From contig CP154954.1 of the NCBI GenBank assembly GCA_039621445.1, positions 2,604,001 through 2,668,000 on the forward strand: 64,000 nucleotides of DNA, given 5' to 3'. Shown in pieces: positions 4,961 to 35,841 of this stretch. The notes under the pieces were generated by a model, which ran no database searches, had not been told where the DNA came from, and saw only the letters and a program-made list of their open reading frames with translations. The stretch is from Euglena gracilis. Taxonomy: Eukaryota. The first letter of the stretch is position 1; every line of letters begins with the position of its first letter. Both the position numbers and the translations under genes were made by a program.

Positions 4961-4994
<34 letters not shown>

Positions 4995-7900: not shown

Positions 7901-8458
7901 AAATCGAAAAAATTTTTTGCCCGAAACGATGTTTTTTGGCCTCCCGGACCCAGAAAAACTGTTTTTGAGCCGAAAACGAGCGTTTTTCGACCCGCCAGCG
8001 CCCCGTTTTGGGCCGCCGACCCATTGACTTTGGGTCAAAACCGGGTCGAAAAAGTCGAAAAAAATCGAAAAAATTTTTTTGCCCGAAACGATGTTTTTTG
8101 GCCTCCCGGACCCAGAAAAAGACTGTTTTTGAGCCGAAAACGAGCGTTTTTCGACCCGCCAGCGCCCCGTTTTGGGCCGCCGACCCATTGACTTTGGGTC
8201 AAAACCGGGTCGAAAAAGTCGAAAAAATCGAAAAAAATTTTTTTGCCCGAAACGATGTTTTTTGGCCTCCCGGACCCAGAAAAACTGTTTTTGAGCCGAA
8301 AACGAGCGTTTTTCGACCCGCCAGCGCCCCGTTTTGGGCCGCCGACCCATTGACTTTGGGTCAAAACCGGGTCGAAAAAGTCGAAAAAATCTGAAAATTT
8401 TATTCGTTGCCCGACGACGAAACGATGTTTTTGGCCTCCCGGTCCCGGAGAAAGAAAA

Positions 8459-8496
<38 letters not shown>

Positions 8497-11400
8497 GTTT
8501 TTGACCCGAAAACGAGCGTTTTTCGACCCGCCAGCGCCCCGTTTTGGGCCGCCGACCCATTGACTTTGGGTCAAAACCGGGTCGAAAAAGTCGAAAAAAA
8601 TCGAAAAAAATTTTTTTGCCCGAAACGATGTTTTTTGGTTTTTTTGACCCGGAAAAACTGTTTTTGAGCCGAAAACGAGCGTTTTTCGACCCGCCAGCGC
8701 CCCGTTTTGGGCCGCCGACCCATTGACTTTGGGTCAAAACCGGGTCGAAAATGGCGAAAAAAATCGAAAAAATTTTTTTGCCCGAAACGATGTTTTTTGG
8801 CCTCCCGGACCCAGAAAAAATGTTTTTTGGCCGAATATGAGCGTTTTTCGACCCGCCAGCGCCCCGTTTTGGGCCGCCGACCCATTGACTTTGGGTCAAA
8901 ACCGGGTCGAAAAAGTCGAAAAAAATCGAAAAATTTTTTTTGCCCGAAACGATGTTTTTTGGCCTCCCGGACCCAGAAAAACTGTTTTTGAGCCGAAAAC
9001 GAGCGTTTTTCGACCCGCCAGCGCCCCGTTTTGGGCCGCCGACCCATTGACTTTGGGTCAAAACCGGGTCGAAAAAGTCGAAAAAATTTTTTTTGCCCGA
9101 AACGATGTTTTTTGGCCTCCCGGACCCAGAAAAACTGTTTTTGAGCCGAAAACGAGCGTTTTTCGACCCGCCAGCGCCCCGTTTTGGGCCGCCGACCCAT
9201 TGACTTTGGGTCAAAACCGGGTCGAAAAAGTCGAAAAAAATCGAAAAAAATTTTTTTGCCCGAAACGATGTTTTTTGGCCTCCCGGACCCAGAAAAAACT
9301 GTTTTTGAGCCGAAAACGAGCGTTTTTCGACCCGCCAGCGCCCCGTTTTGGGCCGCCGACCCATTGACTTTGGGTCAAAACCGGGTCGAAAAAGTCGAAA
9401 AAAATCGAAAAAATTTTTTTGCCCGAAACGATGTTTTTTGGCCTCCCGGACCCAGAAAAACTGTTTTTGAGCCGAAAACGAGCGTTTTTCGACCCGCCAG
9501 CGCCCCGTTTTGGGCCGCCGACCCATTGACTTTGGGTCAAAACCGGGTCGAAAAAGTCGAAAAAAATCGAAAAAATTTTTTTTGCCCGAAACGATGTTTT
9601 TGGCCTCCCGGACCCAGAAAAACTGTTTTTGAGCCGAAAACGAGCGTTTTTCGACCCGCCAGCGCCCCGTTTTGGGCCGCCGACCCATTTATGGGTCAAA
9701 ACCGGGTCGAAAAAGTAAAAAAAAAATCGAAAAATTTTTTTTGCCCGAAACGATGTTTTTTGGCCTCCCGGACCCGGAAAAACTGTTTTTGAGCCGAAAA
9801 CGAGCGTTTTTCGACCCGCCAGCGCCCCGTTTTGGGCCGCCGACCCATTGACTTTGGGTCAAAACCGGGTCGAAAAAGTCGAAAAAAAAATCGAAAAATT
9901 TTTTTTTGCCCGAAACGATGTTTTTTGGCCTCCCGGACCCAGAAAAACTGTTTTTTTAGCCGAAAACGAGCGTTTTTCGACCCGCCAGCGCCCCGTTTTG
10001 GGCCGCCGACCCATTGACTTTGGGTCAAAACCGGGTCAAAAAAGTCGAAAAAAATCGAAAAAAATTTTTTTTGCCCGAAACGATGTTTTTTGGCCTCCCG
10101 GACCCAGAAAAACTGTTTTTGAGCCGAAAACGAGCGTTTTTCGACCCGCCAGCGCCCCGTTTTGGGCCGCCGACCCATTGACTTTGGGTCAAAACCGGGT
10201 CGAAAAAGTCGAAAAAATCGAAAATTTTTTTTTTGCCCGAAACGATGTTTTTTGGCCTCCCGGACCCAGAAAAACTGTTTTTGAGCCGAAAACGAGCGTT
10301 TTTCGACCCGCCAGCGCCCCGTTTTGGGCCGCCGACCCATTGACTTTGGGTCAAAACCGGGTCGAAAAAGTCGAAAAAAATCGAAAAAAATTTTTTTTGC
10401 CCGAAACGATGTTTTTTGGCCTCCCGGACCCAGAAAAACTGTTTTTAGCCGAAAACGAGCGTTTTTCGACCCGCCAGCGCCCCGTTTTGGGCCGCCGACC
10501 CATTGACTTTGGGTCAAAACCGGGTCGAAAAAGTCGAAAAAAATCGAAAAAATTTTTTTTGCCCGAAACGATGTTTTTTGGCCTCCCGGACCCAGAAAAA
10601 CTGTTTTTTGAGCCGAAAACGAGCGTTTTTCGACCCGCCAGCGCCCCGTTTTGGGCCGCCGACCCATTGACTTTGGGTCAAAACCGGGTCGAAAAAGTCG
10701 AAAAAAATCGAAAAAAATTTTTTTTGCCCGAAACGATGTTTTTTGGCCTCCCGGACCCAGAAAAACTGTTTTTGAGCCGAAAACGAGCGTTTTTCGACCC
10801 GCCAGCGCCCCGTTTTGGGCCGCCGACCCATTGACTTTGGGTCAAAACCGGGTCGAAAAAGTCGAAAAAAATCGAAAAAAATTTTTTGCCCGAAACGATG
10901 TTTTTTGGCCTCCCGGACCCAGAAAAACTGTTTTTTGAGCCGAAAACGAGCGTTTTTCGACCCGCCAGCGCCCCGTTTTGGGCCGCCGACCCATTGACTT
11001 TGGGTCAAAACCGGGTCGAAAAAGTCGAAAAAAATCGAAAAAAATTTTTTGCCCGAAACGATGTTTTTTGGCCTCCCGGACCCAGAAAAACTGTTTTTGA
11101 GCCGAAAACGAGCGTTTTTCGACCCGCCAGCGCCCCGTTTTGGGCCGCCGACCCATTGACTTTGGGTCAAAACCGGGTCGAAAAAGTCGAAAAAAATCGA
11201 AAAAAATTTTTTGCCCGAAACGATGTTTTTTGGCCTCCCGGACCCAGAAAAAACTGTTTTTGAGGTGAAAACGAGCGTTTTTCGACCCGCCAGCGCCCCG
11301 TTTTGGGCCGCCGACCCATTGACTTTGGGTCAAAACCGGGTCGAAAAAGTCGAAAAAAATCGAAAAAAATTTTTCTGCCCGAAACGATGTTTTTTGGCCT

Positions 11401-14400
11401 CCCGGACCCAGAAAAACTGTTTTTGAGCCAAAAACGAGCGTTTTTCGACCCGCCAGCGCCCCGTTTTGGGCCGCCGACCCATTGACTTTGGGTCAAAACC
11501 GGGTCGAAAAAGTCGAAAAAAATCGAAAAAAATTTTTTTGCCCGAAACGATGTTTTTGGCCTCCCGGACCCAGAAAAACTGTTTTTGAGCCGAAAACGAG
11601 CGTTTTTCGACCCGCCAGCGCCCCGTTTTGGGCCGCCGACCCATTGACTTTGGGTCAAAACCGGGTCGAAAAAGTCGAAAAAAATCGAAAAATTTTTTTG
11701 CCCGAAACGATGTTTTTTGGCCTCCCGGACCCAGAAAAACTGTTTTTGAGCCGAAAACGAGCGTTTTTCGACCCGCCAGCGCCCCGTTTTGGGCCGCCGA
11801 CCCATTGACTTTGGGTCAAAACCGGGTCGAAAAAGTCGAAAAAAATCGAAAAAAATTTTTTGCCCGAAACGATGTTTTTTTGGCCTCCCGGACCCAGAAA
11901 AACTGTTTTTGAGCCGAAAACGAGCGTTTTTCGACCCGCCAGCGCCCCGTTTTGGGCCGCCGACCCATTGACTTTGGGTCAAAACCGGGTCGAAAAAGTC
12001 GAAAAAATCGAAAAAAAATTTTTTGCCCGAAACGATGTTTTTTGGCCTCCCGGACCCAGAAAAACTGTTTTTCAGCCGAAAACGAGCGTTTTTCGACCCG
12101 CCAGCGCCCCGTTTTGGGCCGCCGACCCATTGACTTTGGGTCAAAACCGGGTCGAAAAAGTCGAAAAAAATCGAAAAAAATTTTTTTGCCCGAAACGATG
12201 TTTTTTGGCCTCCCGGACCCAGAAAAACTGTTTTTGAGCCGAAAACGAGCGTTTTTCGACCCGCCAGCGCCCCGTTTTGGGCCGCCGACCCATTGACTTT
12301 GGGTCAAAACCGGGTCGAAAAAGTCGAAAAAAATCGAAAATTTTTTTTGCCCGAAACGATGTTTTTTGGCCTCCAGAACCAGAAAAATTCTTTTTTTGCC
12401 GAAAAAACGAGCGTTTTTCGACCCGCCAGCGCCCCGTTTTGGGCCGCCGACCCATTGACTTTGGGTCAAAACCGGGTCGAAAAAGTCGAAAAAAATCGAA
12501 AAAATTTTTTTTGCCCGAAACGATGTTTTTTGGCCTCCCGGACCCAGAAAAACTGTTTTTGAGCCGAAAACGAGCGTTTTTCGACCCGCCAGCGCCCCGT
12601 TTTGGGCCGCCGACCCATTGACTTTGGGTCAAAACCGGGTCGAAAAAGTCGAAAAAAATCGAAAAAATTTTTTGCCCGAAACGATGTTTTTTTGGCCTCC
12701 CAGACCCAGAAAAACTGTTTTTTAGCCGAAAACGAGCGTTTTTCGACCCGCCAGCGCCCCGTTTGTGGACACCTAACCATTGATTTTGGGTCAAAACCGG
12801 GTCGAAAAAGTCGAAAAAATCGAAAAAAATTTTTTTTGCCCGAAACGATGTTTTTTGGCCTCCCGGACCCAGAAAAACTGTTTTTGAGCCGAAAACGAGC
12901 GTTTTTCGACCCGCCAGCGCCCCGTTTTGGGCCGCCGACCCATTGACTTTGGGTCAAAACCGGGTCGAAAAAGTCGAAAAAAATCGAAAAAAATTTTTTT
13001 GCCCGAAACGATGTTTTTTGGCCTCCCGGACCCAGAAAAACTGTTTTTGAGCCGAAAACGAGCGTTTTTCGACCCGCCAGCGCCCCCTTTTGGGCCGCCG
13101 ACCCATTGACTTTGGGTCAAAACCGGGTCGAAAAAGTCGAAAAAAATCGAAAAAAAATTTTTTGCCCGAAACGATGTTTTTTGGCCTCCCGGACCCAGAA
13201 AAACTGTTTTTGAGCCGAAAACGAGCGTTTTTCGACCCGCCAGCGCCCCGTTTTGGGCCGCCGACCCATTGACTTTGGGTCAAAACCGGGTCGAAAAAGT
13301 CGAAAAAAATCGAAAAAAAATTTTTTGCCCGAAACGATGTTTTTTGGCCTCCCGGACCCAGAAAAACTGTTTTTGAGCCGAAAACGAGCGTTTTTCGACC
13401 CGCCAGCGCCCCGTTTTGGGCCGCCGACCCATTGACTTTGGGTCAAAACCGGGTCGAAAAAGTCGAAAAAAGTCGAAAAAATTTTTTTGCCCGAAACGAT
13501 GTTTTTGGCCTCCCGGACCCAGAAAAACTGTTTTTGAGCCGAAAACGAGCGTTTTTCGACCCGCCAGCGCCCCGTTTTGGGCCGCCGACCCATTCATTGA
13601 CTTTGGGTCAAAACCGGGTCGAAAAAGTCGAAAAAAATCGAAAAATTTTTTTGCCCGAAACGATGTTTTTTGGCCTCCCGGACCCAGAAAAACTGTTTTT
13701 GAGCCGAAAACGAGCGTTTTTCGACCCGCCAGCGCCCCCTTTTGGGCCGCCGACCCATTGACTTTGGGTCAAAACCGGGTCGAAAAAGTCGAAAAAAGTC
13801 GAAAAAATTTTTTTGCCCGAAACGATGTTTTTTGGCCTCCCAGACCCAGAAAAACTGTTTTTCAGCCGAAAACGAGCGTTTTTCGACCCGCCAGCGCCCC
13901 GTTTTGGGCCGCCGACCCATTGACTTTGGGTCAAAACCGGGTCGAAAAAGTCGAAAAAAATCGAAAAAAATTTTTTTGCCCGAAACGATGTTTTTTGGCC
14001 TCCCGGACCCAGAAAAACTGTTTTTGAGCCGAAAACGAGCGCTTTTCGACCCGCCAGCGCCCCGTTTTGGGCCGCCGACCCATTGACTTTGGGTCAAGGT
14101 CGAAAAAGTCGAAAAAAGTCGAAAAAAATTTTTTTGCCCGAAACGATGTTTTTTGGCCTCCCGGACCCAGAAAAACTGTTTTTGAGCCGAAAACGAGCGT
14201 TTTTCGACCCGCCAGCGCCCCGTTTTGGGCCGCCGACCCATTGACTTTGGGTCAAAACCGGGTCGAAAAAGTCGAAAAAAATCGAAAAAAAATTTTTTGC
14301 CCGAAACGATGTTTTTTGGCCTCCCGGACCCAGAAAAACTGTTTTTGAGCCGAAAACGAGCGTTTTTCGACCCGCCAGCGCCCCGTTTTGGGCCGCCGAC

Positions 14401-15520
14401 CCATTGACTTTGGGTCAAAACCGGGTCGAAAAAGTCGAAAAAAGTCGAAAAAAATCGAAAAATTTTTTTGCCCGAAACGATGTTTTTTGGCCTCCCAGAC
14501 CCAGAAAAACTGTTTTTCAGCCGAAAACGAGCGTTTTTCGACCCGCCAGCGCCCCGTTTTGGGCCGCCGACCCATTGACTTTGGGTCAAGGTCGAAAAAG
14601 TCGAAAAAAGTCGAAAAAAATTTTTTTGCCCGAAACGATGTTTTTTGGCCTCCCGGACCCAGAAAAACTGTTTTTGAGCCGAAAACGAGCGTTTTTCGAC
14701 CCGCCAGCGCCCCGTTTTGGGCCGCCGACCCATTGACTTTGGGTCAAAACCGGGTCGAAAAAGTCGAAAAAAATCGAAAAAAATTTTTTTGCCCGAAACG
14801 ATGTTTTTTGGCCTCCCGGACCCAGAAAAACTGTTTTTGAGCCGAAAACGAGCGTTTTTCGACCCGCCAGCGCCCCGTTTTGGGCCGCCGACCCATTGAC
14901 TTTGGGTCAAAACCGGGTCGAAAAAGTCGAAAAAAATCGAAAAATTTTTTTGCCCGAAACGATGTTTTTTTGGCCTCCCAGACCCTTTTGAGCCGAAAAC
15001 GAGCGTTTTTCGACCCGCCAGCGCCCCGTTTTGGGCCGCCGACCCATTGACTTTGGGTCAAAACCGGGTCGAAAAAGTCGAAAAAAGTCGAAAAAAATTT
15101 TTTTGCCCGAAACGATGTTTTTTGGCCTCCCAGACCCAGAAAAACTGTTTTTCAGCCGAAAACGAGCGTTTTTCGACCCGCCAGCGCCCCGTTTTGGGCC
15201 GCCGACCCATTGACTTTGGGTCAAAACCGGGTCGAAAAAGTCGAAAAAATTCGAAAACATTTTTTTTGCCCGAAACGATGTTTTTTGGCCTCCCAGACCT
15301 GGAAAAACTGTTTTTCAGCCGAAAACGAGCGTTTTTCGACCCGCCAGCGCCCCGTTTTGGCCCGCCGACCCGTTGACTTTGGGTCAAAACCGGGTCGAAA
15401 AAGTCGAAAAAAATCGAAATTTTTTTTTGCCCGAAACAATGTTTTTGGGCCTCCCGGACCCGGAAAAACTGTTTTCGAGCCGAAAATGAGCCTTTTTTGA
15501 CCCACCGGCGCCCTGTTTCT
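2466..15520. repeat. Satellite array 2, ~163-bp monomer, ~80 copies
   Basis: Same monomer as array 1, highly homogeneous; most differences are homopolymer lengths. Copy number is span/163. Confidence 0.98.
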
Positions 15521-15917
15521 GGCACAAACCCCATGGATTTCAGGCAAAAGAGCTCCATGGAGTGGGCCGGTATGTATGGAGGGGTCAAAGAAGGGCCGGG
15601 TGCGCGCTTATTAAGAGCTCAGCACTATTCAAAACCTGGTCGCTGAGCTCTTATCCCTTTATGGGTTACAGCGAAGCTTACCCCTGGGGAAGGGGGGGTC
15701 AAACCCCTCCCTCCCCCCCCGCCCCCCCCCCCGGGTCGGGGCAACCAGGAGAACCGACGGAATATTACTATGATCCCGGCCCGGTTCCCGGATTTTTTTT
15801 TATCAGTCGCGAGCGACTGGATTTGTAGTTTCCGAATCACCTCCGTTTGTCCCCCAACTCCCCGCCAGGCCCGAGTTATTCACGCGCAAAGGGGTCCAAA
15901 CTGGTTAGGATTGGCCC
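15521..15917. repeat. Right flank of satellite cassette, ending at gggtccaaactggttaggattggccc
   Basis: Homologous to 1935-2267; homology stops at ~15917. Confidence 0.75.
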
Positions 15918-16177
15918 GCCATTTTGATGGTATTTCTAAAGGAAATCAACAAAGATCGCGCAGGCAGGGTCCAAATAGAGCGCGCCTCCCGCCGCTGGAG
16001 GCAGCAGTCTGCTTTAAGCGCACCCATGTTTCTAATAGGGGGGGGGGGTTATCTTCAAAAGTTTCCAAAGGTTTCTTTGTTGAGGGGGACATTTTGGGAG
16101 GCAGTCAGGGTGAAATCCCAAGGCACGGCAGCTTTTTTTTCAGGGGGGCGAAGATAATAACCACGCACAGATGATGC

Positions 16178-20603: not shown

Positions 20604-23085
20604 AACACAATGTTAGGATTTATTTTCATTTCTATGAAGGAGGATGCTCGCATCCAGGCTTGTGCTTTGTCGGCTTGTGCAAAAATTTATCAAAAATGAA
20701 AAAATTTTGGCCCAAGCAGCCGAAATGAAAATTTTCACTTTTAAGAGGGAGACCCAATACCTCCCAGTCAACGGACTTTTTTTGGACCCCTTGTCTCACG
20801 ACCGATCCCTTTTTGGTGGAAACCAACATCCAACGACCACCTCCCAATCAGAGGACAGAAATAAATAATTGAATCTGAGGGATTTGGTGTGATGTCACAG
20901 CTCCGAAAGACAGGGTGGAAGAAATCTGTCCCAGGGTGCTCTTAACAATATCTGCAGAAAATTGCTGTTTCCACGGGGGGTGCCAACGACAGGCTGTGTC
21001 TTGGACGGGGGGTACCCTCCTATGTCCAACGACAGTATGCCCCACATCACGGTTGCCACTCACCGGCACCCATAATTGGACATGGGAAGGGCTAACGTCC
21101 ACCACCAGCACCACCAATCATGATTCGATTTGCATGGCCAGATCCTCGCCTGTTCGCCATTTCTCCGTTGATTACATACTCAGCTTTCGTGCCACGGCTT
21201 AGTCTATGTTCCTGGTTGTAGATCGCGTGGGTCACCTTTGGTTGCCCCATCCCCTCTCGCTCAACTTCCACACCTCCATCTGTGCTGTAGACATTGTGGG
21301 CTTGCGATCCCGTGCACTATTTCAACACCAACCCTCCGGGATTCTATGCCGAAGATAATGTCTCCCCCCCACGGTTCCAGAAAATTGCCAGAATCCGTGG
21401 TGCTGGTGAATCTCATATTATTGGAAGCTTTTAGGGACCCTGGCCCGAGCCGACCCCCCTGTGAGAGCGACGGACGATCGTAACCTGCCCTATTTTTCGA
21501 CACCTCCAAATTATTTGTTGTTTGTTTATGACACTCCAGGTGCCTGACTTAGCAAAAGGCACAAATGGCAGAGGGGATTTTCGCCACGCAGCAGCCTCCT
21601 TCCTGGATTACAACAAAGGGAGTAAGTCATATCAGAACCAGCTTCTTTTTGCTTTTGTTTTTTTATTTTTTGTTGGTATATCCAACAGGATCGGAAAATG
21701 TAAAATAAGAAACATTGTGTAGACGTTGATACTGTTGATAATTTTTTTTTAACCCTTGAAAATCAAGGTTGAAAACGATCTCCGTTTTTCAAATCTGATT
21801 GCCCCGGGGAAAATGGATTTATCGGAAATTCCCTGTGCAGGCTGGGGTGTGTTGTGTTTTGTCAAACTCTGCGTTCTTTAACCTCCATCATAATTTGAAT
21901 TCAATATCTGTTTGTGTCCCATTTCCTTTCGATACAGAAGGGTGCAACCCACAAATTTTTGAAAAACGATTACAAGATTAGGTTTGGGAGTTTTTTTTTC
22001 CACAACTGGGTATTTTTCGTCACCCGGGGGGCAAAAAAAATGCCTTTTATGCAAAAATATCACCCGAGTTATTCCCGAGGGAACCCGAGGACCCCCCCCC
22101 CACGGAACAGCCTTGGGGCGCACCCCCCCCCCCGGCAATATCCCCTCCTCAGCTCGGGTTCCACTTTTTGTTTTGCGATGTTCAGCAAAAACGTGCAATT
22201 TTTAAGCATATTTGTTTTTTGTTTTTGTCAATTTTTTTGGCATTTTAGTTCCTTTTATATCACCAACAATGCAATGGGTTTTTGTGTCATTTTTTTCCAA
22301 ATTCAGATTTTTTCGAATGTCCTTTCCGGGTTAATTGGTAATGTTTTTTGTTGACTTCTTCTTTTCCTGGGCTTTGAGGGAAATTTCAACACCTCCTTGG
22401 GCATGGATGTTCAGTTTCAAAGAAATATCCTAGATAAATCAAGAGTTCTGACTTCCAGATACTATTGGTGATTTCCAAAAAACAGCTGCAAGCAGATTGC
22501 ATCTTTCCCCCTCGGCGCATGGATTTACAAAGCTGAGCAGTCAAATTTCGCTGCAGAAATGGAAAACGCAACGGGCTGGGCTGCAGCTGCCTTCGCGCTG
22601 TGCGGAGGAACTGCCGGAGGGTCTCGGACTCCTAAAACAAAAACGAAGAAATAGTGCGTACCTCCTCCGGAATACCAAAATTATTTTTTGCGGCAAACAG
22701 GGGTTTTTATAAGATGGTGTGAAGCCCCCCCCCCCCCTGGGTGGGGGGCCACCCCTTTGGAGAGGGTCCAGGGGAACCAACCAAATTTCCCAAGAACGAA
22801 CCGAAAAATCACAAAATGCCCAAAATAGCACCTTTTTCAAAAACATTCTCGGCGCTGAAAAGAATATCCCGGACCCCACCCCCCTGTTCCCTGGGGTCCA
22901 AGAATATATGAAAAAACGCCTTTGCGGCAAAATGTTGCACTTTTTCGGGGACAAATTTTGCAAGCCCCTTTTTCCGTGAACGAAGAAAAAAATCTTCTTC
23001 AAAACCCAAGCCATGCTTTTGCTTACCGACCGGGGGGGTGCTATAAAGTGCCCGCCCCTGGAAGGCACCCCCGGGGGGGGGCAGG

Positions 23086-23789
23086 CAGGGATGTATGGGA
23101 AGCCTTGGGGGGGGGGGGGCCGGACCCCCCCTCCCGACACATTGGGGGGGGGGGGGGGCGGTGGGTCGGACCCCCCTCCTACCTCGAAACTGAGGGGGGC
23201 CGAAAATTTTTCGATTTCATCGTCGATCAAAAGGGGGTGGGCAGGGTTGGATGGGAAGCCCTTCGGTATTGAGGTGGGTGGTAGGGGGGGTCCCGACCAC
23301 CCCCCCAGGGGGGTAAGGTGGTGGGGGGGTCTGTACCACCCCCCTAGACGTTGGGAGGGGAGGTTCTGACCACCCCAGCCAACCCTCCTTGACAGGTGCA
23401 AAAATAGCAGAAAATTTTCTTCGGGCGCTGCGCTCCGGAAAATGAGGGGAAAAAAACACCCCTTTTGCTGACTTTTGGACACATGGCCCATTTTTTGATG
23501 TGTTGGTGTTTTCCCCAAATAATTGTTCAAAAAATTTCAAAAAATGAGCATTTTTGGATCGATTTCAAAAAAAATTCTGGCACTCTTGGCCGGGTTCTTG
23601 GCCGATTTCGACCCGATTTCCGGCCCTTTTCCCGCCCATCAAATCGAAAAATTTTCGGCCCCCCCCTCTGTTTCGAGGTAGGGGGTCGGACCCACCCCCC
23701 AACATGGCTTCCCATCCATCCCTGGGGGGGGTTGGTCAGGACCCCCCTACCACCTACCGCAATGCCGAAGGGCTTCCCATCCATCCCTG
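23086..23789. mobile_element. hAT-type MITE with duplicated left end
   Basis: TIR cagggatgtatgggaagcc / gggcttcccatccatccctg; second left end at 23242; flanks ggggcagg / agggcagg (7/8 TSD). Confidence 0.7.
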
Positions 23790-23949
23790 AGGGCAGGTGT
23801 CCGGCGGGGCCCGGAAAATTTTCATTAAAAGTGCCCCGACGTCTTTAGGGGGTGCTTGCTATGGGCAGGCCCCGAAAATCCCTCGGAAAGCTAAAGGGTG
23901 CCTGCCCCTTCCAACCCCCCCGTGGGCAGGCAAAGCCCGACAAAGCACA

Positions 23950-24206
23950 GGTACTTATCTGTTAGCGTACGACGGACCCGGCCTTTCGGTTATGGTCCGA
24001 CACCCAGTTTCTGGGTTATTTAGGGCTGTTTTAAGGAATAGGGCTCGGTGCGCACAAGGCCATGTAGCGCTACAAGGCCGTGTGCCATGTGGCCCAACAT
24101 GCGTGTGCGAACCTAACCCTATTCCTTAAAATAACCCTAAAATAACCCAAAAAATGTCGTACCATAACCGAAAGGGGGGTCCGTTGTACGATAACAGATA
24201 AGTACC
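23950..24206. mobile_element. Foldback MITE, Merlin-like (GG termini, 8-bp TSD)
   Basis: TIR ggtacttatctgttagcgtacgacggaccc / gggtccgttgtacgataacagataagtacc, pairing extends ~100 bp; exact TSD aaagcaca at 23942-23949 and 24207-24214. Confidence 0.85.
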
Positions 24207-25168: not shown

Positions 25169-25239
25169 CTGCGGACCGTTGCTGAGGGTGATTCGTCTGC
25201 CGGGAATTCTTAATTGCCTGGGGAGAAGTCTTTAGCCGT

Positions 25240-25576
25240 CGGGGCGGCCGAAATCTTGGCCTCCGCACGCTTGACAGCCCTGCGAAAGGTAAAGCACCCT
25301 GCACAAGTCAACGAAGCCGGTAACTTGCTACTTCCACCCTTGGACCCGGAACACGAAGGAACAAGGCCGATCGCGTCAGGAGAGTGTCCACGCAGATTGG
25401 TCGGAAAGGTGCTGATGAGACAACCCGCGGTTCGCAAGTTCACTGCAGAAGGAATGCCCGGACAATTTGGGGTGGGTTGCCGCGACGCTTGTGGCTTGAT
25501 TGGAATGGGGCTGCAACACCTCGTAACCACCCTAAGTAGCACACAGGCCGCTGATTGGGGCGTGCTACAGCTAGAC
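25240..25576 (+). pseudogene. CRE-1 RT, N-terminal part
   Basis: ARLTALRK...TRPIASGECPRRLVGKVL...GQFGVG...WGVLQLD; continues as FSNAFN after 30225. Confidence 0.9.
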
Positions 25577-25596
25577 CATTCGGGCTCCGCACTGCG

Positions 25597-25698
25597 AGAT
25601 GGTGAGGTGAGGTCCTGCTTTCCTTGCCGGCTGTTCTGTTCTGTGTTTGTTCGTGCGCGGGGGGGTGCTTCTTACTGCTTTTTGTTGCCGGAGTTGGC
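25597..25698 (+). repeat. DIRS left inverted terminal repeat (left extension 25573-25596)
   Basis: agatggtgaggtgaggtcctgctttcc...gttgccggagttggc is the near-perfect reverse complement of 30064-30165. Confidence 0.9.
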
Positions 25699-25818
25699 TG
25701 ATTCCTATTTCTGCCCTTCGACCTCAAGGAGAAAGAATTTCAACACTACGAGTGCGGTCAATACTGAAGACAAAGACATTCAAAAATCAAACACGTGTTC
25801 AACGGAATTCAATGAAAG

Positions 25819-27693
25819 ATGTGTTGGAAAAAATTTCAAGCTGTCAAGAGGAAGTGGGAGCACAAGGACGTTCAAGACAGACAGCCGAAGCTGGAAAACA
25901 CCGAGGAACTGCAGGCGCTGGAGTACCTGATGGAGCAGGGCCAACACGTCCGTCCGTGGCCGTCGCAACCCTTCCGCCCCCCAGTTCGTCAGAAATTTCC
26001 TGTTTTCAACAAAGCTTTTGTGACGGCCATGGACCCTGGACACTCGTGGTCAGAGCAAAGCGTCAGAGGAGCCATCCAGGGCAAGGCCCATTGGGTCATG
26101 GGGACCCATCACAGTCATCAATCAAGGAAACATTGTCAGGAGCGGGAAAAACAGGTCTGGCAGACTACCCATCCCCCTTCTCATCCCCACCCCTATGGCA
26201 GGGGAAATATGACAAGTTCAAAGGGTTCAAGTCAGGAAGGTGGAAACCCTCCTCAAAATGGCCATGGCGGCCATCTATCTACAGGGCCTGGGGCCCAAGG
26301 CTATGGCAGCCATCATTCAAAAGGGCATGGTGCCCATTCTCAAGGACACAGAACCCAGAATCCCAGCAGGGGACCCCAGTGGGGAGAGGTATGTCCAACT
26401 ATCCCCCCAGAACCCTCAAAATCATTCCCCCCAGGGGAAGCAAGCCACAGCCAAGACAGGTGGCATCAAACCCCTCAGAACAATTCAGCCATGGTGGCTC
26501 ATCTGGGGAACCAAGAGGGAAAAAGAAGACACAAGAAAAGTGCTGGAGAGAAGGTCAATGGAGACCAAGAAGGCCAGATGGCCCTGAAGGCCAATGGAGG
26601 CCATTACAATCAAGATATCAAGGCCAATGGAGGCCATTTCAAGCAAATTCAGGTGGCCACTGGAGGCCAGTACATTCAAGATATCAGCCCTTGGGGGGGA
26701 GGCCCAAGATTGGCTACACCAGGGCCCCCCCAGAAGGTAATCAGCCCTCACCCCCCAGCATTATATGTACCTCCCCACCACAGACCTTCCCCCATCTTTC
26801 AAAAACAGGGGGAAAGCCTGTCTTTGAGCAGCCCTATGGCAGGGCCAGAGGCAACCCCAGTGATGGGGCAGCCAGGGGAATGGACCCCAGTGATGGGGCA
26901 GCCAGGGGAAAGGACCCCAGTGATGGGGCCTGTGGAATCCCCAGACACATTATACCCAGGGGTGCCCCCCTACAGGGCCCTGCAGGCCAGCATCCCCCAT
27001 TGGGTCAAGGCAGGAGCCAGCACAGAGGTATTAAACCTGATAAGGAAAGGGTCAGGCAGATCTCCCCTCCCCCCTCAGATGTCCTTAAAAGTTCCCTTCA
27101 AAACTCCCCAAGAAATAAGGACTGCCCAGAAAATTCTGAGAGAATACGAATGTGCAGGGGCAACCAGGCAAATCACCCCACAGGAGGCAAAACATTTTGT
27201 CCCTTATTTTATCATTTCCAAAAAGGAAGGGGAAAAGACCAAGGAAAGACTGATTTCAGATTGTCGACAGTTAAATCTCCATTTCACCCCCCAGAAATTC
27301 AGATTGGAACACATGGGAAACATCTTCCCATATCTAAGAAAAGGTTGGTTCTGTGGAAAAATAGACCTGAAAGATGCATATTTCCACTTAAAACTGCACA
27401 GCAGTCTGGAAAAACATGTGTGCATGCAGGTGGGGGGGGAAACGTGGCAATTTCAAGCTGCATGCTTTGGTATAAGCAGCCTGCCACAAAAATTTATGAC
27501 TCTTATGAGAGTCTGGGAAAGAAAATGGAGAAAGGAAGGCAAGGTAGTTTTCATCTACCTGGACGACATTTTGCTGTTAGCCCCCAGCAAAAAGACAGCA
27601 GCCCAACATTTGGCAGAAGTAAAAACAGACCTTTTACTGGCAGGTTTCAGACTAAACCTCCCCAAATCCTGTCTGGAACCCACACAGGAATAA
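25819..27693 (+). CDS. DIRS reverse transcriptase ORF (RT core ~27150-27690)
   Basis: RLISDCRQLN, KIDLKDAYFH, QAACFGISSLP, IYLDDILL (YLDD 27556-27567). Stop at 27691 lies in an A-run; one extra A gives EPTQEIKHLG into RNase H. Confidence 0.9.
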   Translation: MCWKKFQAVKRKWEHKDVQDRQPKLENTEELQALEYLMEQGQHVRPWPSQPFRPPVRQKFPVFNKAFVTAMDPGHSWSEQSVRGAIQGKAHWVMGTHHSHQSRKHCQEREKQVWQTTHPPSHPHPYGRGNMTSSKGSSQEGGNPPQNGHGGHLSTGPGAQGYGSHHSKGHGAHSQGHRTQNPSRGPQWGEVCPTIPPEPSKSFPPGEASHSQDRWHQTPQNNSAMVAHLGNQEGKRRHKKSAGEKVNGDQEGQMALKANGGHYNQDIKANGGHFKQIQVATGGQYIQDISPWGGGPRLATPGPPQKVISPHPPALYVPPHHRPSPIFQKQGESLSLSSPMAGPEATPVMGQPGEWTPVMGQPGERTPVMGPVESPDTLYPGVPPYRALQASIPHWVKAGASTEVLNLIRKGSGRSPLPPQMSLKVPFKTPQEIRTAQKILREYECAGATRQITPQEAKHFVPYFIISKKEGEKTKERLISDCRQLNLHFTPQKFRLEHMGNIFPYLRKGWFCGKIDLKDAYFHLKLHSSLEKHVCMQVGGETWQFQAACFGISSLPQKFMTLMRVWERKWRKEGKVVFIYLDDILLLAPSKKTAAQHLAEVKTDLLLAGFRLNLPKSCLEPTQE

Positions 27694-28875
27694 AACATTT
27701 GGGCCAATGGATCAATTTGAAAAAAGGCCAATTAAAAAAACAAAAAAAAAAACTAAAATCCTTAAGAAAGGAGCTAGGCAAAGTGCTCACAGCACAGAAA
27801 ATGAGCTGCAGAAAACTCAGTTCTATTGTGGGACAAGTCAGAAGCTATTTAGTTTCAATGCCATTTCTCAGAATTCTGACAGATCAACTTTGCAAAATGG
27901 TGGATTTGCACACAAAGTGGGGTTGGGACCACACCCTGACCATTCCCCAGGGGGTCAAAGATCAAATTGTGGAGTTAAAAGCCTTTTTACAGCCAGGTGT
28001 GGGCAGGGCATTTGAGTCCCAGGCCTCTCAGGAGCTCTTTTCAGACAGCAGCACCTGGCAGTGGGGGGTGCTGGACAAAGCTTCAGGCCAAAAGGTGCAG
28101 GATTTTTGGAGGGACCTGCATGTCCTTCATATCAATCAAAAAGAGTTGCAGGCTGCAGTGGAAACAGTAAAGGCACTAGCCAAACCAAAACAAACAATTG
28201 TGCTCCACGTGGACAGCCAGGTGGCTGTAAGTTATTTAACAAAATGGGGAGGCAAAAAGCCATACCTAAATTCCATCTTAAAACCGCTGTATCATTGCCA
28301 AGAAAAACAAATCAATTTGCAGGTGGTTTGGGTCCCCACAAAGGAGCAATTGGCAGACTCCCTGACCAGGGAGCAAAAGGACCCAGGGGATTATACCCTA
28401 AACCTAAACATCTTTCACCAAATTCTTCAGTTTTTCAGAAAGGAAATCACCCCAGAGGTGGACATGTTTTGCACACCCAGCAACAAAAAATTCCCCAAGT
28501 TTGTTTGTCGATACCCCCACCAAGGGGCTTTGCTGGTGGATGCCTTGAAGGCAGATTTGAGGGGCCTCCCCCCAGTTTATGCAAACCCCCCCTGGAGCAT
28601 CATTCCCCAATGGGTTCAGAGATTAATGTTAAACCCAGACCTAATTTGTCTGTTGATCGTACCCCACTGGGCTTCGACATCATGGTGGCGCCAATTAATG
28701 TCAATAAGGCAGCCAGGCAGCAAGGTTTTGCTAGTACCCCCCCAATGGGGTCTGTTCACCAACTGCTGGGGGGAGGAGATGCCCCCCCCCAAGGTGGAAT
28801 TTGGCCTGCTTGATTGTGTCAGGCAAATATTACAATCCCAGGAAGTTTCGATGTCCAGTATCGACACTTACATAA
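27690..28875 (+). CDS. DIRS RNase H + DNA N6-adenine methyltransferase domains (continuation of pol)
   Basis: RNase H: LFSDSS, HINQKELQA, HVDSQVA, WVPTKEQLADSLTR. MTase: VDMFCTPSNKK, VYANPPW (NPPW 28584-28595), LLIVPHW..SWW. Probable true end RWNLACLIVSG...* after a C-run shift at ~28790. Confidence 0.88.
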
Positions 28876-29720
28876 AAAATCTGGGAAATGTCAAGAGATA
28901 TGATTCAGCCTTCAGGACATTGGTGGGCCAATTGTTGCACAAAGGGGTGCCCCTGCAGGACTGCACAGTCCACAAGATGGCCGAGGCCATCCTTGATTTG
29001 GCTGCCCACAGCCTCAACACTGCACGAAATGCATATGCAGCAGTTTTATTACTCCCAGGGTTTGGGTCATTGAGGTTTTCCCCTCTTTTGTCTCCATTGA
29101 AAAGGAAGTGGAATTCCAATGTCTGCAAGTATGCCCATTTCTGGGACCCCACTGATTTCTTAGAAAACATCATCAGGAAATCCAAACCCCTCTCAGACCT
29201 GTCTGTGAAAGAGCTCAGAAACAGACTCATCATCTGTTGGAGGCTGTTAGCCCTCCACAGGGGGGTTGATTTAGCCAGAACACAGCGGAAAATCAGTTTC
29301 GTGGGAGAAAAAATTTTCATTTTATTGCAAAGGAAAGGGTGGCAATTCCCAAGATGGGAGGAGATTTTAAATTTGCCACACACCCCCCTCATCAGCCCCT
29401 GGCATTTATTGAAAGAATATGTGGAAAGGACAGCCCACATGGTTGGACACAAAAATAATTTGTTATGGTCTTTGGATAGTAAAAGACCTTTGACATCAGA
29501 AAGGGTGAATTCCCTTACCAAAGAAATTCTGCAAGAGGGGGGGGTGGACACCACCCATTGGAAACCCCACAGCACCAGAGGGGCTGGGGTCTTATGGTGG
29601 AAAAATGCTGGTTTGCAAGTGGAAGAAGTCCAGCAGCTGGGTCAGTGGAAAAATTTTGGGGCCTTCCAAGCCCATTATTTGCGACTTGGGGTCGTATCAA
29701 AAATTCAAAATATTATGGCC
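28790..29720 (+). CDS. DIRS tyrosine recombinase domain
   Basis: Catalytic set: LALHRGVDL (R), WKPHSTRGAG (HxxR), LGQW (W), FQAHYLR (Y). True start and end uncertain. Confidence 0.9.
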
Positions 29721-29738
29721 CAAAGGGGGGTGCACAGT

Positions 29739-29840
29739 ACCTCACCATCTCGCAGTGCGGAGCCCGAATGGTCTCGGACTCCCACGACAAAGGAAGGGGG
29801 AGGAAGGGACCAAGAGGGCGAAGCACAAGAAGATGGTGAG
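29739..29840 (+). other. DIRS internal complementary region (ICR)
   Basis: 29739-29774 is the reverse complement of the left terminus (25573-25608); 29771-29840 is the reverse complement of the right terminus (30156-30225); they overlap at GTCT. Confidence 0.95.
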
Positions 29841-30063
29841 CCCAACCCTCCCACCCAAAAAATCAGCAGAAAAAGAAAGACATCCCAACCAGAAAGGGGA
29901 CCCCCGACCAAGCAGCCCCAACCACCCACCCAGGAACACACCAGAAAGAGACAACCATCACCATCGGAGGGGCGGGCCCCCACAAAGCGCCCAGGGAAGG
30001 GGGGGGGGGGGCGGGGCCACGACGGTTCAGCTTCGCCAAGGTGTCGGAGGAGGCCTCATCATC

Positions 30064-30165
30064 GCCAACTCCGGCAACAAAGGCGCAGTAAGAAGCACCC
30101 CCCGCGCACGCACAAACACAGAACAGAACAGCCGGCAAGGAAAGCAGGACCTCACCTCACCATCT
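30064..30165 (-). repeat. DIRS right inverted terminal repeat (right extension 30166-30225)
   Basis: Reverse complement of 25597-25698. Confidence 0.9.
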
Positions 30166-30225
30166 TCTTGTGCTTCGCCCTCTTGGTCCCTTCCTCCCCC
30201 TTCCTTTGTCGTGGGAGTCCGAGAC

Positions 30226-32087
30226 TTCAGCAACGCGTTCAACCGGGTCCGCCGTGATGCCTTATTGGAAGCGGCAAGAGAAAGATGCCCCGAAATGGTC
30301 ACGTGGCTGGAAACATGTTATGCAGAACACTCCAGTCTCTTCTTGGGGGATACTTGCCTCCGAAGTAAATCAGGGGTCCAGCAAGGGGATCCTTGTGGCC
30401 CCGCTGCTTTCGCCCTTCCCATTCAAGGACTGGTGGAAGAACTTCATTACGTATGTGGCTGGCAAGCCTGGTACCTGGACGACGCCCACATCGTGGGCAA
30501 CATGTGCCAGCTCGAGGCCGCGGTCCGAATGATCCTGGAAAAGGGCCCTCCGATCGGTGTGGCACTCAACCTGGACAAGTGCACGCTGTGGAGGCCGGCC
30601 TTCGGTACCGCATGGTCCTCCCTTCCAATGGGAGCAAGCATCCTCCAACAAATCCCGGTGACACCTTTTATCCCTGGCTCAGGAATGGGTGTCCCGGTGT
30701 GCCACCCAGCGGACGGCACCTTTGCTGAACACACCTGGTTTGGACGGTGCGAGGCTGCGATGAAAGCATGTTCCCTCCTACAGAGAGTGCCTTCCGCACA
30801 CGTTCAATTCACGATCCTTCGGATGTGCCTGGACGTATGCAAGGTGAATGACCTTCTGCAGGCAACCCCAGCCTCCTATGCTCAAGACCAATGTGCCTTG
30901 CTCAGCAAAACCGTGCGGAATACAATGAGCATTATCAGCGGACGACCACTGGAGGAACCACAATGGGTTCAAGCCACTCTCCCGGTTCGACTGGGGGGTT
31001 TGGGTATCCGCGACCCAGTTGTCGAGAGAGTGAACGCCAGATGGGCAGCAACTCTGGATTTCGTTATTCGAGGGGATCGGATCCTTGACCTCCCAGCCTT
31101 CTGCTCTGTTCCGCTACTCCCCATCGACTTCGCGGACACAGTAGGAGCCATCAAAGGAAGCTGCTCTTGGCCAACATCCGCTCAATCCTTCTGTGATGAC
31201 CCCCGTCGACACGAATTGTTGACGCCCGAGATGCTGACACAGCGCTTCTGGGGAAATGCTTGTGCTGAAGCACGACAGCAGAGGCTGCACGCCGCCTTGG
31301 AAGGGACGGAAAAATTGAAGTTCTCCTGCCAGATGAAGCCACACGCCATGGCATGGGCCTCAGTGACACCGTGTGCCTCGACCAAAACACTGATTCCCAC
31401 CAGAGAATTTCAGGCCATCGTCCAGTGGTCTCTGGGTGCCCTGCCCCGGTGGTCAGCGCTACAGACAGCCCACCTGCCTGCCCAAGATGCCACAACCCCA
31501 CAGATGTCAGAGGCCACCACCTTGTCTGCTGCCACAAAAACAACATTGTCCGGCGGCACAATGCGGTGCAATCGCACATCCTCGGGCTCGCGCAGCGTGC
31601 AGGCTTCCCAGCCAGAAGGGAAGAAAGTGCCCCAGATGGCTCACGACCAGGCGACGTATTCGTCATGAGGTACGATGCAAACGACCCGGCAGCCATCGAC
31701 GTCACCATTCGTCACCCGCTTGTCGCGCCTTCGCGAAATCGCGCTGGCTTGGAGGATATTGGCAGGTGGCATGAGGCACAGGAGCAGGACAAGATAAAGA
31801 AGTATGGAGATGGTTGCCAACGAAGAGGCTGGACATTAATTCCCTTTGTCTTGGACTGTTATGGTGGCATGGGGGATGGTGCGCTCACCTTTGTTGGTAA
31901 CTGCATCAAGCTGTTAGCAGGCCAACACGACGCCTGGGAGAGGAGGGGCGTCGAGGGGACCTGCTGGCAAGGAATAAGCATGACTCTGGCCCGGGAGGTT
32001 GGACGACAATTGGTTTGGGGACAATGCCCCGAAGAGCTCGCTGACCATAGCCTCCCTGAATCTCATAAACCCTACTGTACTTCATAG
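30226..32087 (+). pseudogene. CRE-1 RT C-terminal part, CCHC knuckle and restriction-like endonuclease (one frameshift ~31430-31470)
   Basis: FSNAFN, SGVQQGDPCGP, WYLDD, LNLDKC, QATLPVRLGGLGI; CPRC...HHLVC, RRHNAV, RPGDV...IDVTI, EQDKIKKY. Confidence 0.92.
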
Positions 32088-32626
32088 CTCCGAGGCAGCA
32101 CCACAACCAAACACCCGAAATCGAATACCAAAAGCCGAGAACTCTCTCCGGACGTCCACCATGGAGGTGCCGAAGTCACACACAATCGAAGGGGGTGGAA
32201 CCCCCGAGAGGGACCTCAAACCAAGTGCCAGCCAGGTCCACCATACAACTTCTTCAAGCGCACCTGAAATCCTGACTCGGACCTGGTGCTGTAGAAAACG
32301 AAGGGCCCGTCCACCCAATCCAGATCTCAAATACAGAAGGATGCGGCCCCAGTCGGTGGATAACTGTTGGGAAAGACACGCCTTGCTCTCGCAAGCTCGA
32401 CGACGCAGAGCTCAACGACCAATCAGAATTGCGGTGGTCGTGAACACTATTTCAAATCGCCTGTGCACCTGCAGCATGACGAGATCCTTTCGCTAAGCTC
32501 ACCCCTCTTACCTGCCCCCGCACCTCGCACAGACTCTTTCTTCTGTATTTAGCCTCACTCCCCTGAACTCGTCAAATCCAGTAGGCTGTGCCACTGGTCA
32601 TTCCCAATCGAGAAGTCTTTAGCCGT

Positions 32627-33605
32627 TGGGGTACCAAGTGACTACCCCGGCGACAGCACCGTCTCTGACATTACCTGGGCCAAGGCATCTGAAAAGTTCC
32701 AGGATACCATCTTGCGCCTCCAACAACTGCCGGACCCCCAACTGCAACCTGTATGCTACGCAACTGCTTGGACGGTTGTCGCGTGACACACCTTCTGCGT
32801 CAAATGAATATCTGCTCCGGTACACAGAGTGTGCAAATCATCTCAGATTCCATCCGGCACGCGGCCTGTGACATCGTGGGGGCACCCCTGTCTGCCTTAC
32901 ATTGGAACCAAATCACCTTGCCCTGCAACAAGACAGGGTGGGGTATCACAGACCCCCAGCTGGAGAGACCAGCTGCCCGTCTGGCTGCCTGCGTGGGTTT
33001 TTCCCAACGGGCGCCCAGCTTTAATATCCCTCCGCTCTGGCGCATGAACCCGCTACCGGACACCATCCCCGTGGCCAAATTAGCCCGTGATACTTTGGGC
33101 CCGCACAGCGAACCACTGGCCTCCTGGATCGCCAACCCTTCCTCCTTGGCCTCTTCCACCCCAGATCATTCCACTCAATCGTGGTGGGCCGAACGTTTCC
33201 ACGTCGTTCGCGTGGCAACCCTGGAGGAGGGTGCACCTCTTCGGGACATCGCCAGACTTCGCTGTCAGTCCTCTGCCTTCCTTCAGAATTGGATGATCGT
33301 CCTGCCGTCCAGGTCCGTGAACACTGTCCTAGCACCAGATGAATACAGACTGCTATTGCGCTTCTCGACCGGTTTACCCCTCATCCCAACAACAGATATA
33401 CTCTTGTACCCCTTGTGTGGTGAGGCGGTCGACCCCTTCGGAGACCACCTCCTGGATTGCAGAAGGAATGGCATAACCGAAAGACACAACTGCGTCCGCG
33501 ACGCCATCTTCGACCTCTGCCAACGCTCAGGCATCACCCTGCGCAAAGAACAGGGCTGTGAGACTGGCACCCGCGACGCTGATCTCCTCCTGCTGGGGTG
33601 GAACA
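32627..33605 (+). pseudogene. CRE family 2 fragment (post-RT region to start of RLE)
   Basis: GVP..YPGDS, LRNCLDGCRVTHLLR, QITLPC..GWGI, DPFGDHLLDC, ERHNCVRD, RDADLLL; homologous to the CRE-3 protein. Confidence 0.85.
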
Positions 33606-34689
33606 AATCCGGTGAGCCCCCGCCAGTCGGGGAATTAAATCTGGTCGCCCTGTTTTCCGCAGATTTTTTTGGATCATTGCCGCCAGGGTCACCTCGCTCG
33701 CCTTGCATGTCTCACTTTTTTTTGTGTGTCGGTTCGCAGACGCGGCAGAAAAAATAAAAACTTTTTTTTGACTTTTCCAATCCCGCATTTCTCTGTGCAA
33801 AAAAAAAGCCTCCAAACATCGAAAAAGGTTCCATCGCTGGACCCTTTTCCTGGGCCTTGACTGGCGTTTACTGGGCCCTGTGGCACCAAACTGGCCAAAC
33901 ATCCTGGCACCAAACTGGCCACCACTTGTGACACCCCCCCCCCCCCTCACCAAATTGGGTCACCTGTGACAGCCCCAAACTGGCCACTGGTGGACAATAA
34001 GTTGAGTGGAAAATTGGCAACCACCTCTCCACACAAACCACACACAAATGCCCACCACACACACGCCTCATTCAGATCCTTCCATAGGTGTAGAAGTGGG
34101 GGGTCGGGGGGGGGGGGGGTCGGCCGCCCCCCCCAAGATTTTGGAGAATTTTTTTTTGCAAATTGTGTAATTTACTCGCCACATTCTTTGTGTTTTTTCC
34201 TTCAATTTCTCAGACAAAGAACTCAACTTTTCATTGAACTTTTTGGCTTTTTTTGCTGTTGGACGTCGCTACCGTCTCGCCGCCCTTCGGGCGGCAAAAC
34301 AACTCCAGAACTCATGGGTCGGAGGGGGTGGGAATCTTTCTTTTTTCAATTTGGGTTGTTGTTTGCAAACATTTCCACTTTAACAAGAAACACATGTACC
34401 TCCACCCCCCCCCTTATTGTCCCACCGACCTGCCCCCGGGAGGCCCGACCGGACAATAAGGGGGGGACAATAAGACCGTACCAAAGGAATTTCATTGGCC
34501 GGGCCAAACCCCCCCCCCCCGTCGGCCGGGGCCGAGGGACAATAAGGGGGGGTATGTTGACTTGGCTTATAAAATTCAAAATCGAAAGCATACCATTTCT
34601 ATTAACAAGTTTTGCTCTTTTTGGGGAACCTTTTTGGGAAATGCATTACCGTCCAGCCGCCCTTCGGGTGGCAACTCTTTTTTTTGTTC

Positions 34690-34855
34690 AATCACCCCAT
34701 GGGGACCGGGAACTGGCATCCTGTGCCTTGGGGTACCGTGTGACTGCCCGAGCGACAGCACCTTCTCCGACATTAATTGGGCCAAGGCATCTGAATAATT
34801 TCAGGCTACCATCTCGTGCCTCCAACAACTGCCGGACCCCCAATTGCAACACTGT
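34690..34855 (+). pseudogene. Short CRE family 2 fragment
   Basis: ITPWGPGTGILCLGVPCDCPSDSTFSDINWAKASE; nucleotide match to 32627-32750. Confidence 0.75.
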
Positions 34856-35841
34856 TTGCTGTGTAATTGTCTGGACGGCTGATTCAATGCCAAAAAGTGC
34901 TACCGTCTCGCCGCCCTTTGGGCGGCCAAAAAAAAACAATGTCGTATTGGGCCTTGTCGAGGATCTCGCCCCCCTCCCGAGAAAAAATTACTTCTACACC
35001 CCTGGATCCTTCCCAAATGATACACGACATCACCAGAACAAATTCCCAGTCAAAAAACATTTCGTTGCAAAATGGTCTTTGCTGGCCCAGGGCCTTTTCA
35101 GGCCACTGGTGCAAAATCTTTTACACACAGGAAATTCGAGAGACACATTTGCAAAACACAACAATGCAGCAGAAAAAAAAAGGCGCTATGTTAATTGCAA
35201 TGCGGCAGTTACAAAACATTTTTTTACCTGCCTTCCTTGTCCTCGCAATTCATCAGAATTCGCCTGCTTCTCTGTTCTTCAGCTTCTCTCAATTCATCTG
35301 ATGAAAATACATGCAACATAAAATACCCACAGAAAGAGGAAAACGTAAACAGGCTTTGCAGAACGTTGTACTAGAAAACCATGTGATGCCACAGATGCAT
35401 GCCACAGACATTTGATGTAACACCCACACACTTTTCCTAAAAATTCATTTTCCCAGGCTAACAGTGGAAAATCAACACAGCCGACTTTCACTGGAAATGA
35501 GCAATTCAGCAGAACAAACGACAGGATCATACCTTCAACTGTAAAGTTTTTATCTTTAATTTGAGCATTGCTACTTCTTCCCATGAACTTTACTGCCTGC
35601 AGCCTTGGGAGCCCTGGAGAGGGGGAAAAAATCATTTGATTAGTAAGGGACATGAACCTATCTGTGTTGAACTTCTTCATCAGCTTTGATCAATTCTTGC
35701 CCCGCTTCAGGCTTCGCCTTCTTATCAATGCCAAACACTTTTTCATCGGTTTTTGACCAGGTGTGCAACTGTGGAGGGAAGGTAAAAGGACGCGTATACT
35801 TTCGCTATTTCAGGTAAGTAATACTCGGGGGAATTAATTCC

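Follow-up and report, generated by a model that had tools for sequence, protein, structure and literature searches.

We analyzed 64,000 nucleotides of Euglena gracilis DNA (assembly GCA_039621445.1, contig CP154954.1, forward-strand positions 2,604,001 to 2,668,000); this whole stretch is called the window below and all coordinates refer to it. A DIRS1-like retroelement of 4,653 bp occupies positions 25573-30225 on the + strand and interrupts the reverse transcriptase (RT) region of another retroelement. Our reading, to which we give a probability of roughly 85%, is that the element was joined to the genome through a short identity with a genomic AGAC, that this AGAC lay in a dead long interspersed nuclear element (LINE) of the restriction-like endonuclease (RLE) type, and that the hit on motif A of the LINE RT is incidental.

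Termini and internal complementary region

The element has inverted terminal repeats (ITRs) and an internal complementary region (ICR, 29739-29840). The junction strings quoted in a first-pass annotation of this DNA, gctAGACcattcggg at 25570-25583 on the left and gagtccgAGACttcagc at 30213-30231 on the right, are both present in the window exactly as written there. An inverted-repeat search showed that the left terminus segment 25573-25608 is the reverse complement of 29739-29774 (36/36 nt, 100%), and that 30156-30225 is the reverse complement of 29771-29840 (70/70 nt, 100%). Read along the + strand, the ICR therefore gives first the left end and then the right end, each as its reverse complement. 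Its two arms overlap at 29771-29774, where the sequence is GTCT, the complement of AGAC; according to a script, the next base outward is mismatched on both sides and the overlap is thus exactly four letters. These arms confirm the earlier statement that the ICR spells right end-AGAC-left end in antisense, and the junction motif is encoded by the element itself. The 26-nt left and 19-nt right terminal strings each occur twice in the window, once at the terminus and once in the ICR, with none expected in shuffled sequences.

The same search paired the left ITR (25574-25664) with the right ITR (30098-30188) as 91-nt arms of 88% complementarity. The right ITR is followed by an extension, 30189-30225, which is complementary to the ICR only and ends in the right AGAC (30222-30225). 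The left AGAC (25573-25576) is common to the target and the element, and its four letters can be assigned to either side. The ICR lies within the open reading frame (ORF) of the tyrosine recombinase and encodes ...SAEPEWSRTP...EGEAQ..GE. All of these features, and those described below unless stated, are on the + strand.

Insertion point and natural empty site

The insertion splits the host RT at the aspartate codon of motif A, which is the GAC of AGAC. The flanks read in one frame, with ...RPIASGE...AADWGVLQLD on the left and DFSNAFNRVRRD... on the right, i.e. DFSNAFN...QQGDPCGP...YLDDAHIV. The N-terminal part of the host RT is 5′-truncated (25245-25572) and runs from RT motif 1/2 through ...RPIASGE... 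up to the LQL of motif A. The C-terminal part with a linker (30226-31668) carries FSNAFN, QQGDPCGP and YLDDAHIV and matches Pfam RVT_1 with an E value of 4.7e-9. A second, uninterrupted LINE RT at 47229-46243 on the minus strand served as a control. It is 33-38% identical to the host RT, is collinear with it across the insertion site (tblastn aligned the N-terminal part to 47229-46990) and reads ...AVLQVDLANAFN...; this paralog has GGAC at the motif A codon.

To look at the site in other copies we aligned Logan contigs from four public runs (X1, X3, X16 and X19) to 25300-30500. A joint from 25572 to 30222, which skips 4,649 nt and leaves four letters that fit either side, was found in 3/4 runs (three contigs in X1, two in X3, one in X16 and none in X19). 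One of these contigs, 1,288 nt in length, covers 273 and 279 nt of the left and right flanks with six and three mismatches, respectively. All contigs deviate from the window at six flank positions, and they therefore represent other copies of the host family. As the empty joint has four ambiguous letters, the target had a single AGAC. No other duplication or deletion accompanied the insertion, and nothing else was gained or lost. No loose end among those listed for the contigs falls at the element termini. The claim that removal of the element together with one AGAC restores the motif A frame is thus borne out by the single codon series of the flanks, by the empty-site contigs and by the collinear paralog.

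Integration through AGAC and alternative explanations

According to the published model, as given in the parts of Piednoel et al. (2011; PMC3266345) and Malicki et al. (2020; PMC7192593) drawn on here and below, the ICR arms overlap at the circular junction, and recombination with an identical short genomic sequence leaves no target site duplication (TSD). The structure described above is best explained in the same way. The element would have integrated as DNA with joined ends, most probably a circle, in which the junction would read right end-AGAC-left end. Recombination, presumably catalyzed by the tyrosine recombinase of the element, would have taken place inside the short identity between this junction and an AGAC in the genome. 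The target AGAC would have chanced to lie at the aspartate codon of RT motif A in an RLE-type LINE that was already 5′-truncated and frameshifted. The crossover could fall anywhere within the four shared letters, and the required core could be 2, 3 or 4 nt long.

Relatives of the element were sought in sequence collections. An exact scan with a 20-nt string from the left end gave no matches in the viral, metagenome and prokaryote-genome collections. A protein-guided scan detected two short metagenome loci (L001 and L002) with recombinases 46-47% identical to that of the Euglena element; the same type of scan over viral and genome contigs found no further loci. In L002 both an ICR and a right end are present. 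Complementarity between them ends at ...GGAGTGCGAG, which is followed by TTGG, while the ICR predicts ...GAGACCAA.

Several observations weigh against the proposed explanation or limit it. The right boundary of L002 stops two letters short of AGAC, so that only AG (...GAG) is kept; this mismatch may reflect a shorter core, a process in which identity is not strictly needed, or a junction that has changed since insertion. A single copy cannot separate a 4-bp core from a shorter core extended by chance identity. One X19 contig follows the host to 25571 and then continues for 301 nt matching neither the element nor the right flank, which leaves room for another insertion at the same point. Finally, a free circle junction was seen in no read or contig; the ICR carries the same string, and because of this contigs cannot tell a circle junction from an ICR.

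Two side observations concern the structure of these loci. At 896-1830 of L002 the right end borders directly on gag and RT sequences of a second DIRS copy, which points the same way, a case of DIRS-in-DIRS nesting. At 600-900 of L001 the ICR passes directly into a stretch resembling the left repeat, followed by a 5′ leader and a gag-like ORF, without a right terminus; this could be a tandem or recombined copy or a mis-join by the assembler.

The first-pass annotation had proposed that the core is AGAC. What stands of this is an overlap of exactly four letters and a single AGAC in the target. The stricter version, in which the crossover core is exactly AGAC and all four letters are needed in the target, is possible but in our view doubtful. 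It agrees with the mismatches directly outside the overlap on both sides, with the presence of all four letters in the empty site, and with the invariance of GTCT in the ICRs of both relatives. Against it, the sample is a single copy, and with a core of 3 bp, the junction size given by Piednoel et al. (2011), about 44% of insertions should by calculation have a further matching base directly left or right of the core; moreover, the right end of L002 has only AG in common with the junction. The core length and the lack of target preference are both judged from the one copy of the element family that was examined.

It had also been suggested that the element prefers RT motif A and acts as a parasite of a parasite. 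On this explanation it would aim at motif A of RLE-type LINEs and recognize more than a short core. The insertion exactly at the aspartate codon would fit, as would the X19 contig, which belongs to the host family and leaves the host sequence at the same point. However, the target and the circle junction have no similarity outside AGAC, and the 2.2-kb host fragment alone offers nine candidate sites (four AGAC and five GTCT; the window has 141 and 99, 240 in all). The paralogous RT lacks AGAC at the codon, and the one related junction, that of L002, sits in another DIRS copy and not in a LINE. In 4/4 runs the contigs of the element add up to a depth many times greater than those of the host flanks, which also speaks against a restricted target, although depth is not a copy number. 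We gave contig depth little weight for that reason and because the depths of the empty joint disagree among runs (148 in X1 versus 10,030 in X3). Targeting of motif A is accordingly improbable, the earlier suggestion was not upheld, and we read the hit on this motif as incidental.

An ordinary 4-bp TSD made by a staggered cut, as in integrase-type elements, would likewise place the same four letters at both ends without their being part of the element. This is highly unlikely: between the complements of the two ends the ICR has a single copy of the motif, which argues against an ordinary duplication and would otherwise need a 1/256 coincidence. In an integrase-type insertion the target alone would supply the duplicated letters and the element would lack them, whereas here the motif is present once in the ICR and is conserved in the ICRs of two relatives; the recombinase of the element is also of the tyrosine type, with no integrase detected. 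Equally remote is an assembly artefact joining a repeat to an unrelated LINE copy, since, even with both families highly repeated in the runs and no contig bridging the filled junction among the matches listed, a chance mis-join would not give one codon series across flanks that match the empty-site contigs to the base.

A conserved block at the junction

Alignment of the ICR regions of the Euglena element, L001 and L002 revealed a block at 29755-29782 in which 26/28 positions, GTCT included, are invariant in the three families, compared with 34/100 positions in the recombinase-coding DNA just upstream. It is the best conserved DNA of the 3′ region. The block consists of the arms GAGCCCGA and TCGGACTC around ATGGTC, and the junction letters are located at one arm-spacer edge of these inverted arms. 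It encodes AEPEWSRTP, and most of the aligned relatives that extend this far also have the junction serine. Third positions with four-fold degeneracy do not vary either, so at least part of the constraint acts on the DNA itself. Six folds of the block were modestly better than those of shuffled sequences (z from -0.7 to -2.6), and for this reason a junction hairpin is kept as a lead only.

In appearance the block resembles a tyrosine recombinase core site. We tentatively suggest, as a speculative proposal, that euglenid DIRS elements carry an att-like site at their joined ends. On the junction strand such a site would read as inverted arms of 8-9 nt, GAGTCCGA and TCGGGCTC, separated by the six spacer letters GACCAT; it would be near-invariant as DNA in families whose recombinases are less than 50% identical, and it would be encoded within the recombinase ORF. 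The strands would be exchanged inside AGAC, at the edge between arm and spacer, and no more than the first two or three letters of the spacer would have to match the target. If true, an att-like site with two or three matching spacer letters would explain the short DIRS 'cores'.

Comparison with known DIRS elements

All the defining features of DIRS1-like elements that we tested are present. These are an RT with a YxDD motif and an RNase H (the latter match weak), a tyrosine recombinase in place of an integrase (its Phage_integrase match is under the Pfam cut-off), a methyltransferase-like domain after RNase H, ITRs and an ICR with overlapping arms, and the absence of a TSD with the junction motif found once in the empty target. 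The identification as a DIRS element of the tyrosine recombinase type was therefore correct, with ITRs, ICR, gag, RT, RNase H, methyltransferase and recombinase regions all in place. One feature that is typical and not defining, a 3-bp junction that is usually NTT, is replaced by the four letters AGAC in the examined copy.

The DIRS1-like elements annotated by Piednoel et al. (2011; PMC3266345) have a 3-bp circular junction and NTT at both ends in 23/28 elements, most often ATT, with two 2-letter junctions also listed in their Table 3. The remark in the first-pass annotation that TTT is the core in many families was thus loosely right. The Euglena element shares with the elements of PMC3266345 ITRs that diverge in their outer part and are conserved in their inner part, the right extension, and the overlapping ICR arms. 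It further shares with them the RT/RNase H/methyltransferase region, a tyrosine recombinase with HSTR, the YLDD motif, the same motif at both ends and the lack of a TSD. The dimensions are also comparable with those in Table 3: the right extension is 37 nt (9-75 in the table), and the ICR arms are 36 and 70 nt (24-110 and 36-89, respectively). The Euglena junction, AGAC/GTCT with a four-letter overlap, differs from the 3-bp junctions and the prevailing NTT of those elements. The ICR of the Euglena element is inside the recombinase ORF and is conserved at the protein level. A precedent for a motif other than NTT is AmDIRS1 of Allomyces macrogynus (PMC3266345, Table 3), a DIRS1-like element with the GC-rich terminal motif CGG/GCG and the junction CG. 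It differs in host and motif, and its only extension is on the left, that of the Euglena element on the right. AGAC is therefore atypical of DIRS1-like elements but not without precedent as a non-NTT motif.

Experiments by Malicki et al. (2020, PMC7192593) showed that DIRS-1 of Dictyostelium discoideum cannot retrotranspose without its ICR. Like the Euglena element, DIRS-1 has an ICR, and the model for it is integration via a short circular-junction motif. Its copies accumulate in other repeats, in centromeric clusters (PMC7192593), which is a likeness to the nested Euglena copy. Most of the DIRS-1 cDNA detected was linear and single-stranded, and amplification of the circle junction did not succeed (PMC7192593); the Euglena family is known from sequence alone.

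In E. gracilis itself, DIRS and LTR elements have been described to carry a Dam-like methyltransferase domain (bioRxiv 10.64898/2026.05.21.726589). The DAM-carrying DIRS elements of that preprint are of the same kind as ours and from the same organism; in the portion of its text available here, termini, ICR, junction and targets are not treated. A search of the literature on Euglena together with DIRS or RLE-type LINEs found no description of the termini of this element family or of the host LINE. For the circular junction of DIRS elements, a literature search yielded no papers other than PMC3266345 and PMC7192593. The words 'DIRS' and 'retrotransposon' are absent from the text of a preprint on extrachromosomal circular DNA of Euglena (10.1101/2023.11.29.569251).

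Coding regions and frame breaks

The coding capacity of the element is divided between two long frames. The frame 25816-27693 contains a low-complexity gag-like part and the start of the RT with FIYLDD. The frame 25611-30257 (1,548 codons) spans nearly the whole element and contains the rest of the RT, the RNase H match, the methyltransferase-like segment and the tyrosine recombinase.

The gag-like low-complexity part (25819-26950) is in one frame with the RT start and has tandem repeats: a 33-nt unit present three times and a 30-nt unit present twice (26589-26686 and 26854-26913, respectively). Public contigs contain length variants over these repeats, with joints from 26615 to 26683 and from 26851 to 26886. 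The RT core (27244-27675) with the FIYLDD motif matches Pfam RVT_1 with an E value of 3.4e-12, and a PDB sequence search returned no match for it. RNase H (28098-28283) is a weak Pfam match, E 0.0017, under the cut-off. The adenine-methyltransferase-like domain (28443-28697) has an NPPW motif and matches phrog_111 'DNA methyltransferase' with an E value of 3e-5; Pfam gave no match for this segment.

The tyrosine recombinase (28821-29741) carries HSTRGAG and AHYLRLG, which are nearly invariant across 28 aligned relatives. It matches Phage_integrase at E 9.2e-5 (22.7 bits, below the cut-off of 27.1) and a PHROG integrase at E 0.0091. It is 98% identical to the product of an E. gracilis transcript in EukProt, and 64 further relatives at E <= 0.001 are all unnamed environmental sequences. 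The Pfam domain search found no integrase in the element. A conserved C-terminal tail of the recombinase ORF (30020-30091; RRFSFAKVSEE...PTPATKAQ*) lies in a different frame from the recombinase.

The element is complete in structure, as had been stated, but its reading frames are broken in two places. The first break is in the RT at 27688-27693, where a stop codon (27691-27693) ends the first frame and reading resumes in the frame of 25611. Many other copies in the public contigs have an extra letter behind 27688 or 27689; contigs with a letter inserted behind 27688 number 27 in X1, 31 in X3, one in X16 and four in X19. One relative reads the recombinase and the tail within a single ORF. This implies a second frame break upstream of the tail, somewhere in the interval from about 29850 to 30020; the run of G at 30000-30011 is a possible place. 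Both breaks are in or near homopolymer runs, so an assembly error is possible for both. As assembled, this copy is no longer coding-competent. In contigs of X1 and X3, eight letters stand in place of 29841-30131, about 290 nt from the ICR to the inner right repeat including the recombinase tail, which suggests a shorter subfamily of the element.

The host LINE and neighbouring sequences

CCHC and RLE motifs (RRHN, PGD, IDVT, KIKKY and RRGW) were found at 31479-31832. Because they follow the RT in the order known for R2, the host is assigned to the RLE-type LINEs. R2, NeSL, CRE and their relatives have the same arrangement of RT, CCHC, and then RH, PD, D, K..KY and RG.W-like motifs (list and order for the R2Bm restriction-like endonuclease from the relevant part of PMC4838377). 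The RLE motifs are in another frame than the RT, and hence the host copy is frameshifted. Overall, its motifs characterize the host as an RLE-type LINE, 5′-truncated near 25245 and frameshifted. The RLE motifs were read in the translation. Pfam gave no match for the endonuclease ORF; a protein atlas search with this ORF returned unnamed clusters only, and a PDB sequence search returned no match for the host RT.

Members of the CRE clade insert site-specifically in spliced-leader RNA genes. The first-pass annotation had called the host a CRE element. That the interrupted gene is the RT of another retroelement, an RLE-type LINE, holds, but the CRE label was not established: the nearest proteins are unnamed environmental sequences with 42-58% identity, and no Rfam family, spliced leader and rRNA targets included, reaches threshold anywhere in the window, the host copy being 5′-truncated.

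A string of 22 nt (GAGAAGTCTTTAGCCGT followed by C or T and GGGG) is found at 25223-25244 and at 32610-32631, and nowhere else in the window. Both copies immediately precede 5′-truncated RLE-type LINE fragments that start at different points of the RT, and their surroundings are otherwise dissimilar. The string may be a remnant of the LINE target or an added 5′ sequence. Further decayed fragments of RLE-type LINEs are located just downstream of the host at 32693-33757 and 34613-34881, one of them with a CCHC / RHN endonuclease region, making this stretch a pile of LINE remains. At 1-16000 and 22500-24000, many long overlapping open frames on both strands with translations rich in proline and glycine suggest tandem or low-complexity repeats.

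Implications for DIRS integration and gene models

To our knowledge, DIRS integration has never been reconstituted, and the target rule has been inferred from short motifs at element ends. The copy described here provides a clean data point: it has its two junctions, an empty site found in nature, and an ICR that matches each end perfectly. It indicates that the DIRS integration model holds in Euglenozoa with AGAC, unlike the usual NTT.

There is also a consequence for annotation. An open frame at 29509-31668 (719 codons) runs from the 3′ part of the element into the RT of the host LINE. Since frames pass through the right end into the LINE RT, nested copies can give chimeric DIRS-LINE gene models. 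Nested insertions are suspected behind chimeric DAM-plus-LINE-RT predictions in E. gracilis in the part of bioRxiv 10.64898/2026.05.21.726589 that deals with them, and the frame 29509-31668 is an example for such odd predictions.

Of all these findings the conserved block at the junction most merits follow-up; it offers a concrete 28-nt candidate site for recombinase assays.

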